This document shows positions 1,471 to 1,510 of a stretch of 3,562 nt of DNA, piece by piece. The position numbers and the translations under genes are program-made. The stretch is taken from the IMG/VR virus record IMGVR_UViG_2563366990_000015. One strand, written 5' to 3'. This DNA is from a virus. Lineage: Duplodnaviria; Heunggongvirae; Uroviricota; Caudoviricetes. The notes below the pieces were generated by a model that worked only from the letters and a program-made list of their open reading frames with translations, was not told the origin of the DNA and ran no database searches. Position 1 is the first letter of the stretch; each line of letters starts with the position of its first letter.

Positions 1471-1510
1471 AGAAGCCAAAATAAGCCACTTTGGGCCATT
1501 TTGAGCCATT
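1471..1510. repeat. Four tandem 10-bp repeats with a phased GCCA core, candidate Cox boxes or operator array
   Basis: AGAAGCCAAA (1471..1480), ATAAGCCACT (1481..1490), TTGGGCCATT (1491..1500) and TTGAGCCATT (1501..1510). The GCCA core sits at 1475, 1485, 1495 and 1505, one helical turn apart, between the candidate Pe start and the cox start codon. The repeats are directly visible; the functional assignment is inferred. Confidence 0.5.

Follow-up and report, generated by a model that had tools for sequence, protein, structure and literature searches.

A phased direct-repeat array upstream of cox in a P2-like prophage as the probable switch-region operator of its own Cox protein

The 40-bp array of direct repeats upstream of cox in the P2-like (Peduoviridae) prophage described here is most probably the switch-region operator of the prophage's own Cox protein, as judged from sequence comparisons. 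The window, by which we mean the whole stretch of 3562 bp that was analysed, is the int / C / cox immunity and switch module of this prophage. Its gene order, int-C-cox, is that of annotated P2, and in P2-type phages int and C are co-transcribed from the lysogenic promoter Pc. The intergenic region between C and cox measures 131 bp, and the early genes to the right of cox are small, DUF4761 and DUF4754 among them. The genes and sites on which the argument turns are as follows.

1-1005, minus strand: int, a tyrosine integrase of 334 aa (Pfam Int_N and Phage_integrase)
11-29, plus strand: Int P' arm-type sites, GTGGACAC twice (11-18 and 22-29, 11-bp spacing), in the int 3' end
1102-1404, minus strand: the C immunity repressor gene (100 aa, HTH; weak HTH_3 and HTH_31 matches)
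1407-1436, plus strand: the early promoter Pe, with TTGACA at 1407-1412, an 18-nt spacer and TATCCT at 1431-1436 (10/12 consensus positions, strong, sigma-70-like)
1411-1430, plus strand: presumed C half-site O1, CAAAGATGCCATATCGGGCA, between the Pe -35 and -10, co-varying with C type
1443-1462, plus strand: presumed C half-site O2, CAAACGTGCCACATCGGGCA, downstream of the Pe start
1469-1478, plus strand: box 1, TAAGAAGCCA, leftmost and variable, in register with boxes 2-4 (PWM score 7.4)
1479-1488, plus strand: box 2, AAATAAGCCA, the second-best match in the window (PWM score 12.3)
1489-1498, plus strand: box 3, CTTTGGGCCA, which reads ATATAAGCC in most relatives
1499-1508, plus strand: box 4, TTTTGAGCCA, the best match in the window (PWM score 12.8)
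1536-1823, plus strand: cox (95 aa), a winged-helix excisionase/repressor and the presumed box binder (PF10743 Phage_Cox, E = 6e-23)

The closest deposited phages, P88_4B11 (Xuanwuvirus), PhiR44_2, Chuche and Citrobacter Shae_phiSM, are ~89% identical to the window across int-C-cox. Some part of the window is matched in 329 of 5426 complete E. coli genomes, and the identical Cox protein is indexed in 478 blocks of an assembly collection; many of the prophages that carry it are inserted beside pdxB. The switch region is identical or nearly identical to that of the window in L011, L014 and L016, three among the ten exact-Cox loci listed. The window C protein shares 91% identity with the repressor annotated in P88_4B11 and PhiR44_2; with the C repressors of other P2-like phages, L-413C and SEN5 among them, identity is 42-49%. 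When genome contigs were searched with the Cox protein, a single distant locus was found, in Rahnella, at 53% identity.

An earlier note on this DNA had reported four GCCA cores, phased at exactly 10 bp, between a candidate early promoter and cox. The sequence confirms both the spacing and the placement: GCCA stands at 1475, 1485, 1495 and 1505 on the plus strand with an exact 10-bp period, between the promoter at 1407-1436 and the cox start at 1536. To the left of the array (1469-1508) lies the second of the presumed C half-sites and to its right the cox Shine-Dalgarno, and the repeats of the array run head to tail as direct repeats distinct from the presumed C half-sites. The full pattern, GCCA-N6-GCCA-N6-GCCA-N6-GCCA, has a single occurrence in the window and is absent from all of 200 dinucleotide shuffles. 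With a look-elsewhere correction, in which any 4-mer occurring four times in register was counted, none of 1000 shuffles contained such a run at period 10, and 1 of 1000 did when all periods from 9 to 12 were admitted. Tandem Repeats Finder independently reported a period-10 array at 1484-1510 (2.7 copies, 82% matches). The phased GCCA array is real and did not arise as a chance pattern.

We then compared 13 distinct versions of the array, whose Cox proteins are 64-100% identical. These are the window type, the L007 and L008 types (both found with a Cox identical to that of the window), P88_4B11, Shae_phiSM, Chuche and seven prophages with Cox proteins of 64-85% identity. Anchored at box 4, the alignment of all 13 is gap-free and reveals a conserved unit, WWWT(A/G)(A/G)GC(C/A)N, at an exact 10-bp period. 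The GC dinucleotide is invariant in boxes 2, 3 and 4, where it is preceded by T-R-R and an A/T-rich stretch; AAAT..GC is almost invariant in box 2, and TTTT-R/T-A/G-GC is invariant in box 4. The last A of the GCCA core may be A, G, T or C, so that 'GCCA' as such is specific to the window variant. Box 1 retains its GCC in only 8 of the 13 variants, which points to three robust boxes and one variable, lineage-specific box.

This pattern of conservation speaks to whether the array simply arose, without function, by chance or by neutral duplication in tandem of 10 bp, and was carried along with cox. Such an origin is compatible with the classification of the array by Tandem Repeats Finder as a short imperfect tandem repeat and with the lack of conservation of box 1. 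A neutral repeat would be expected to lose all of its positions at a similar rate; in the 13 variants, by contrast, GC and T-R-R do not vary and the inter-core positions drift, and the three boxes keep their GC at a 10-bp period down to 64% Cox identity. The motif is moreover found at a second, unlinked place, the attachment region (see below), and we consider a functionless duplication extremely unlikely. Given the phylogenetic relatedness of the 13 variants and the physical linkage of array and cox, linkage could lie behind part of the association between the two.

A further possibility is that the repeats act as RNA, in the cox leader or in an overlap of the Pe and Pc transcripts, by folding into a structure or serving as a binding platform that governs translation or antisense interference. 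Counted along the Pe transcript, the array spans about +30 to +65, and the leader of the window folds with -20 kcal/mol (z = -2.15), a stability equalled by 5 of 200 shuffles. The predicted leader hairpin relies, however, on the window-specific box 3 (GGGCC), and the consensus structure of the 13 variants amounts to -0.22 kcal/mol and 4 pairs with no compensatory change. A search of Rfam gave no match at E <= 1. Direct repeats with DNA-helical periodicity that also occur at the untranscribed attachment site point to recognition at the level of DNA, and a role as RNA appears to us as improbable as a functionless duplication.

Upstream of the array, a consensus scan identified Pe as the sole promoter-like match within 1300-1650, its -35 hexamer flush against the C start codon, as is also the case in P2. 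O1 and O2 form a 20-nt direct repeat at 32-bp spacing with TGCC-N6-GGCA in each copy. PMC1904263 describes for the C operators of WPhi a geometry in which O1 lies between the -35 and -10 and the half-sites are about three helical turns apart; the window resembles WPhi in both its O1/O2 placement and its half-site spacing of about three turns. In Shae_phiSM/L007 and in Chuche/L030, O2 is replaced jointly with C. The window carries TGCCAYATCGGGCA twice, L007 and Shae_phiSM carry TCATATGTGAT/TTACATGTAATA, and Chuche and L030 carry TTTCTCATATGAGAAA. In this comparison it is the pair of repeats at 1411-1430 and 1443-1462, and not the GCCA array, that behaves as operators of C.

These natural exchanges allowed us to separate the array from C. 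An identical Cox occurs with two of the C/operator types and a Cox of 94-97% identity with a third, and boxes 2-4 persist across all three. When the window is compared with L007, identity is 96-100% over int and cox and falls to 48-66% only across ~1200-1500, a segment that takes in boxes 1-3 along with the operators and the N-terminal two-thirds of C. That the boxes hold their motif and register inside a segment of 48-66% identity argues against simple hitch-hiking. The reverse case is provided by ESSI2_ev239, where C is 76% identical and the operators are similarly arranged while Cox is just 43% identical. At the same position this phage has four other phased repeats, GTTCCAGA, GTTCTAGA, GGTCTGCAAA and GGTTTGCAAA (GTTCYAGA, GGTYTGCAAA). 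Phased repeats of other kinds were also found upstream of cox in phiT5282H (its own repeat, ATAAGCNG, three times), in the Rahnella prophage (TAAGCAC-like boxes) and in a Klebsiella phage (P2-like TTAANNNGCA repeats). Taken together, the natural swaps of C and the reverse case of ESSI2_ev239 indicate that the array tracks Cox and not C.

The same data bear on whether the repeats might be auxiliary operators of the C repressor, serving for instance in autoregulation of Pc. GCCA does occur inside both presumed C half-sites (TGCCAYATCGGGCA), at 1417 and 1450, the window-specific sequence GCCACTTTGGGCC spanning boxes 2-3 resembles O2 (GCCACATCGGGC) by inspection, and the C repressor of P2 autoregulates Pc (PMC1904263). 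Against this, the array is unchanged with at least three C proteins that are 47-50% identical and have unrelated operators (TCATATGTGAT/TTACATGTAATA and TTTCTCATATGAGAAA). The O2-like appearance of boxes 2-3 is missing from all other variants, including L008 with the same C type, and the box motif recurs at the attachment site, where C is without a known role. Use of the array by C is therefore very improbable. The earlier note had assigned the array to 'Cox or repressor' specificity: the Cox half of this proposal stands, and the repressor half does not, as the boxes are constant across at least three C types. Its central suggestion, phased sites in the switch region for the phage's own Cox, is the one that the comparative evidence favours.

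Over residues 18-95 the window Cox shares 56% identity with P2 Cox, and it matches PDB 4LHF with E = 4e-26. Five residues that alanine scanning identified as essential in P2 Cox are all retained in the window Cox: R29 of the DNA-binding helix, R51 of the wing, R78, and the two tryptophans that form the filament, W81 and W84. Changes are seen at the helix positions with a proposed role in specificity (T25E and R30T, and also G26S, A27T and K34A), and R73 of P2 Cox is a Q here. Retention of the essential residues together with an altered specificity helix would fit a protein that oligomerises and binds DNA like P2 Cox and reads a different box.

A recombination directionality factor would also be expected to have sites at the attachment region. 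At the attachment site of P2, the Cox footprint has the att core on one side and, on the other, the Int P' arm, which overlaps the int end; since the window begins at the int stop codon, the region left of the P' arm falls outside it. The two GTGGACAC sites at the int 3' end match the P2-type arm consensus tgTGGaCa (PMC3448106) and the annotated position of the P2 P' arm. We built a PWM from the switch boxes only and used it to scan whole 5-kb loci on both strands. In five loci the top non-switch two-box array lies directly left of the P' arm repeats:

L024: ATATAAGCCA TTATGGGCCA, score 25.2
L028: GAATAAGCCA TTATAAGCCA, score 22.7
L027: GAATAAGCCA TTATAAACCA, score 17.0
L001: CTTTAAGCCG TTTCAGGCTA, score 14.3
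L026: GAATAAGACA TTATAAACCA, score 11.2

A sixth locus, L029, encodes a Cox of 50% identity whose helix reads RSPQAVRDMAK, compared with RKESTVRTMID in the window. The boxes at the L029 switch read TAAGTAGC, TAAGTGGC and TAAGTAGC, 10 bp apart, and the attachment region has TAAGTGGC followed 10 bp on by TAAATGGC. The motif TAAGTRGC occurs three times at the switch of L029, and its four matches in 2.9 kb, both strands included, all fall at the switch and the attachment site. The motif has changed at the switch and at the attachment site along with the Cox helix, as a dual-purpose directionality factor predicts.

In the lineage of the window the picture is less clear. An initial PWM scan, made on the window and on its lineage, detected no convincing array left of int, and the copies in L014, CTTAAAGCTA and TTTCAGACCA, are degenerate and outside the top-ranked PWM matches; attachment-site boxes became clear in more distant homologues only. 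The search for further copies near the attachment site, which the earlier note had put forward, therefore bore fruit in L024, L028, L027, L001, L026 and L029 and gave weak or degenerate copies in the window's own lineage. One further feature was detected across the P' arm from these copies, inside int and beside the arm:

28-59, plus strand: a weak box-like trio, ACTTACGCCA / CTTTCAGCGG / TTAAGAGCCA, with 11-bp phasing

With a score of 16.9 this trio is the best non-switch three-box array in the window and L014, and that score turns up somewhere in 6% of shuffled 8.3-kb sequences. It is a possible accessory Cox site, and the evidence is suggestive only.

The attachment-site data also help to weigh the view that the phased A/T tracts confer intrinsic curvature, in which case the array would be a structural or UP-like element of Pc or a site for IHF, Fis or H-NS. 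DNA curvature is common near phage switch promoters and attachment sites, and runs of T and A at 10-bp phase (AAAAT, CTTTG and ATTTTG, alternating with GCC) are conserved here alongside the GC. Curvature and Cox binding are compatible, and curvature may well assist wrapping. Curvature alone, however, leaves the invariant GC dinucleotides unexplained, as it does the change of motif at both the switch and the attachment site of L029 that tracks the Cox recognition helix. In ESSI2_ev239 the array is replaced by unrelated repeats that are not A-tracts, and the near match to an IHF site, AATCAAGGAGATT (1517-1529), is not conserved, most relatives having AATTAA. We consider curvature as the sole basis of the array improbable, albeit less so than the other alternatives, and retain a Cox operator as the preferred reading.

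How the array relates to known operators is best seen from P2 itself. Cox-boxes at Pc and attP of P2 were reportedly described by Saha et al. in 1987 and 1989 and by Yu and Haggard-Ljungquist in 1993. The cited work on these boxes includes Berntsson et al. 2014 (PMC3936717), where the consensus is TTAAA(G/C)NC(A/C) with a spacing of 10-11 bp; the version given in the earlier note, TTAAA(G/C)NCA, is accurate against this source. The resemblance to it that the note had seen in the array holds for the 3' half, A-G-N-C-A, and does not extend to the whole motif, as the P2 consensus has 86 matches with at most two mismatches compared with 92 expected. Box 4 (TTTGAGCCA) matches 7 of the 9 P2-consensus positions and is the only box within two mismatches, while boxes 1-3 match 6 of 9 each by inspection. 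By this comparison the window boxes are not P2 cox-boxes in the strict sense, their consensus being WWWTRRGC(C/A)N and not TTAAA(G/C)NC(A/C).

In arrangement the two are closer. The footprinted Cox region of the P2 switch overlaps Pc just upstream of cox, with box ends 10, 10 and 9 bp apart (PMC3936717). As in P2, the array of the window is preceded by the C operators and followed by the cox ribosome-binding site, the repeats run head to tail at 10-11 bp, and a second set of boxes lies beside the Int P' arm at attP, here seen in relatives. P2 Cox sites have at least six boxes and footprints of ~70 bp, and the DNA is bent only with more than four boxes (PMC3936717); in contrast, three to four switch boxes (40 bp) and two attachment-site boxes are recognisable here, against at least six in P2.

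Other members of the group show the same theme, in that the Cox and Apl operators of P2-like phages are direct repeats at 10-11 bp. The Cox site of WPhi is given in PMC5009727, after Ahlgren-Berg et al. 2009, as a 12-nt direct repeat in the Pe-Pc region, and in the WPhi sequence the repeat CCTAGAARGGAC occurs twice, 20 bp apart. In the window this repeat has two matches at three mismatches, both away from the array, compared with 3.1 expected. The two phages are alike in that the Cox repeats lie between O2 and cox, in WPhi apparently just downstream of the Pc start. They differ in that WPhi Cox is more distant from the window Cox: it is not among the 60 Cox matches listed, all at least 43.8% identical to the window Cox, and PMC5009727 puts it at 37% identity to P2 Cox. 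Apl of phage 186 binds 6-bp direct repeats, spaced by 10-11 bp, that lie between promoters facing each other; seven operators are at pR-pL and five at attP, and binding is cooperative, with bending and spreading (PMC7498355). Apl likewise combines the roles of recombination directionality factor and switch regulator and has repeats at att as well; unlike Cox, it belongs to a separate outlier protein lineage and has more sites, and the 186 switch adds CII and an SOS-inducible antirepressor. The lambda Xis sites X1-X1.5-X2 are similar in that tandem sites one turn apart are occupied head to tail by winged-helix protomers and the DNA is bent, and P2 Cox superimposes on Xis with 1.0 A rmsd. In contrast to Cox, lambda Xis acts only at att with no lysis-lysogeny promoter role, and it is without the C-terminal oligomerisation helices.

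The earlier note had also taken the array to mark the lysogenic promoter region, and by analogy with P2, WPhi and 186 it would do so. Consensus scans for sigma-70 promoters on the minus strand of the 13 variants gave no Pc consistent across variants, and we therefore do not claim a position for it. Three candidates were noted:

1478-1483, minus strand: candidate Pc -10, TATTTT, the top-scoring -10 hexamer of the region, found again at this offset in 7 of 13 variants
1536-1508, minus strand: TTGTGG, 17-nt spacer, TCGAAT, a candidate only
1533-1525, minus strand: extended -10-like TGgTAATCT, a candidate within the invariant cox initiation region

The TATTTT candidate lies 74 nt from the C start, compared with 72 nt for the annotated Pc -10 of P2 from the P2 C start; it turns into TATTTG in several relatives and is thus not secure as the Pc -10. 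A Pc at this candidate position would imply P2-like occlusion and a Pe/Pc transcript overlap of ~28 nt. Placed at the candidate TGgTAATCT, Pc would have the boxes at +10 to +45, an arrangement like that of WPhi, where, according to the WPhi sequence and PMC1904263, Pc starts ~60 nt from O2 with the Cox repeats in between. Under all three candidates a Cox filament on 1469-1508 would stop transcription from Pc.

Our account of Cox binding and its cooperativity, of where Pc lies and of what the switch does in consequence is drawn by analogy from P2, WPhi and 186 (PMC3936717, PMC1904263, PMC7498355). Upon infection or derepression, Pe would fire and Cox would be the first product of the early operon. 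One Cox protomer would then occupy each box, on the same face of the DNA and head to tail, from box 4 to box 2 and on to box 1 where present. Binding would be cooperative, with Cox polymerising through its C-terminal helices, bending or wrapping the DNA and spreading to the flanks. As Pe and Pc face each other in P2-like phages, 1469-1508 would cover either Pc or the first 10-45 nt of its transcript, and Cox bound over this stretch would shut off C and int and lock in lytic growth. With the boxes at about +30 to +65 of the early transcript, Cox at high levels could also dampen Pe, as in P2. The copies of the motif beside the Int P' arm, at attP or attR, would let the same Cox direct excision.

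It is tempting to combine these observations into a two-cassette switch in the pdxB-integrating clade, whose recombination joint would fall at the Cox array or inside it, and to add a WPhi-like Pc right of the array; as a whole we regard this as possible though doubtful. On the two-cassette reading, a cassette of ~300 bp may be swapped freely against a constant module of Cox, boxes and Int. The cassette may comprise the leftmost boxes, the Pe operators and the DNA-binding part of C, its N-terminal two-thirds, and incoming cassettes may have to bring or re-evolve boxes in register. If Pc lies right of the array, in the cox initiation region (TGgTAATCT), Cox may stop transcription as a roadblock downstream of Pc instead of occluding the promoter.

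The switch design outlined here is well known among phages, and nothing in it is mechanistically new. What the array adds is a predicted operator, with a box consensus of its own, for an uncharacterised and widespread Cox specificity class. Cox-motif pairs were earlier available for P2, WPhi, HP1 and 186 Apl; to these can be added the putative pairs of WWWTRRGCC with the helix RKESxVRTMID, of TAAGTRGC with RSPQAVRDMAK, and of GGTYTGCAAA with the Cox of ESSI2_ev239. Such protein-motif pairs could help to decode how winged-helix directionality factors read DNA. The natural cassette swaps show, in turn, that the C/operator and Cox/box halves of the P2-type switch evolve as exchangeable modules.

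The features that bear on the switch and on the att end of the window, together with one that lies outside it in related loci, are as follows.

Window 11-18 and 22-29: two copies of the Int P' arm-type repeat GTGGACAC, within the 3' end of int, at 11-bp spacing
Window 28-59: weak box-like trio ACTTACGCCA, CTTTCAGCGG and TTAAGAGCCA, in the int coding sequence directly right of the P' arm sites, at 11-bp phasing
Window 1411-1430 and 1443-1462: 20-nt direct repeat at 32-bp spacing, with an inverted TGCC-N6-GGCA in both copies
Window 1509-1518: mini-palindrome TTCGAACGAA, in the interval from box 4 to the Shine-Dalgarno sequence
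Window 1522-1538: near-invariant AGGAGATTACCACAATG, in the cox translation-initiation region
Outside the window, to the left of int (L014 2410-2445, L001 1439-1475 and L024-L028 ~890-930): conserved hairpin directly before the att boxes

The GTGGACAC pair agrees with tgTGGaCa, the consensus of P2-type Int arm sites, and occupies the same position as the annotated P' arm of P2, and we therefore place the start of the window within attP/attR. The adjacent trio is the top non-switch array of the locus but barely exceeds chance (6% of shuffles). Left of int, the hairpin has the arms GGGTGATACTG...CAGTATCACCC in Salmonella-type loci; those of E. coli phages are GGGCAATACTG...CAGTATCGCCC, and more distant relatives carry a hairpin of other sequences. 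Changes on one arm are matched on the other, so that the stem is kept. The hairpin may serve as a terminator, either of the C-int operon or of the neighbouring gene, or as a protein site.

In the cox initiation region, AGGAGATTACCACAATG persists across 13 variants of the switch region in which Cox identity falls as low as 64%, the exceptions being AGAG in one variant and GAGAGT in two, while the flanking bases and the Cox N-terminus are variable across the same set. Read on the minus strand it is TTGTGGTAATCTCCT, which resembles an extended -10 element (TGnTAATCT), and Pc or another signal may be hidden here beside the ribosome-binding site. The mini-palindrome is retained in 10 of the 13 variants as TTCG-N2-4-CGAA with a variable centre; its counterpart is TTTGGACGAA in Shae_phiSM and TTCAGCACCAAG in the related loci L027 and L028. 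In Salmonella phage SEN5 (L018, 916-1801), an insert of ~0.9 kb with three extra ORFs occupies the C to cox interval, whereas the switch of phiT5282H, with a near-identical Cox, is of the usual compact form and its boxes are ATAAGCNG, so the switch architecture of SEN5 may be split.

The 20-nt repeats are presumed to be the C repressor half-sites O1 and O2; their geometry resembles that of the WPhi half-sites, and in other immunity types they are exchanged along with C. Compared with the related loci L007 and L005, window ~1180-1500 is an immunity cassette. Against prophages that share the window's Cox and Int, the drop in identity to 48-66% is confined to this segment, which takes in boxes 1-3 and the operators as well as the N-terminal two-thirds of C. 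Over the remaining third of C, at its C-terminal end (1102 to ~1180), identity to L007 stays at 84-96%, which suggests an oligomerisation domain common to both types and a recombination joint within the C gene.
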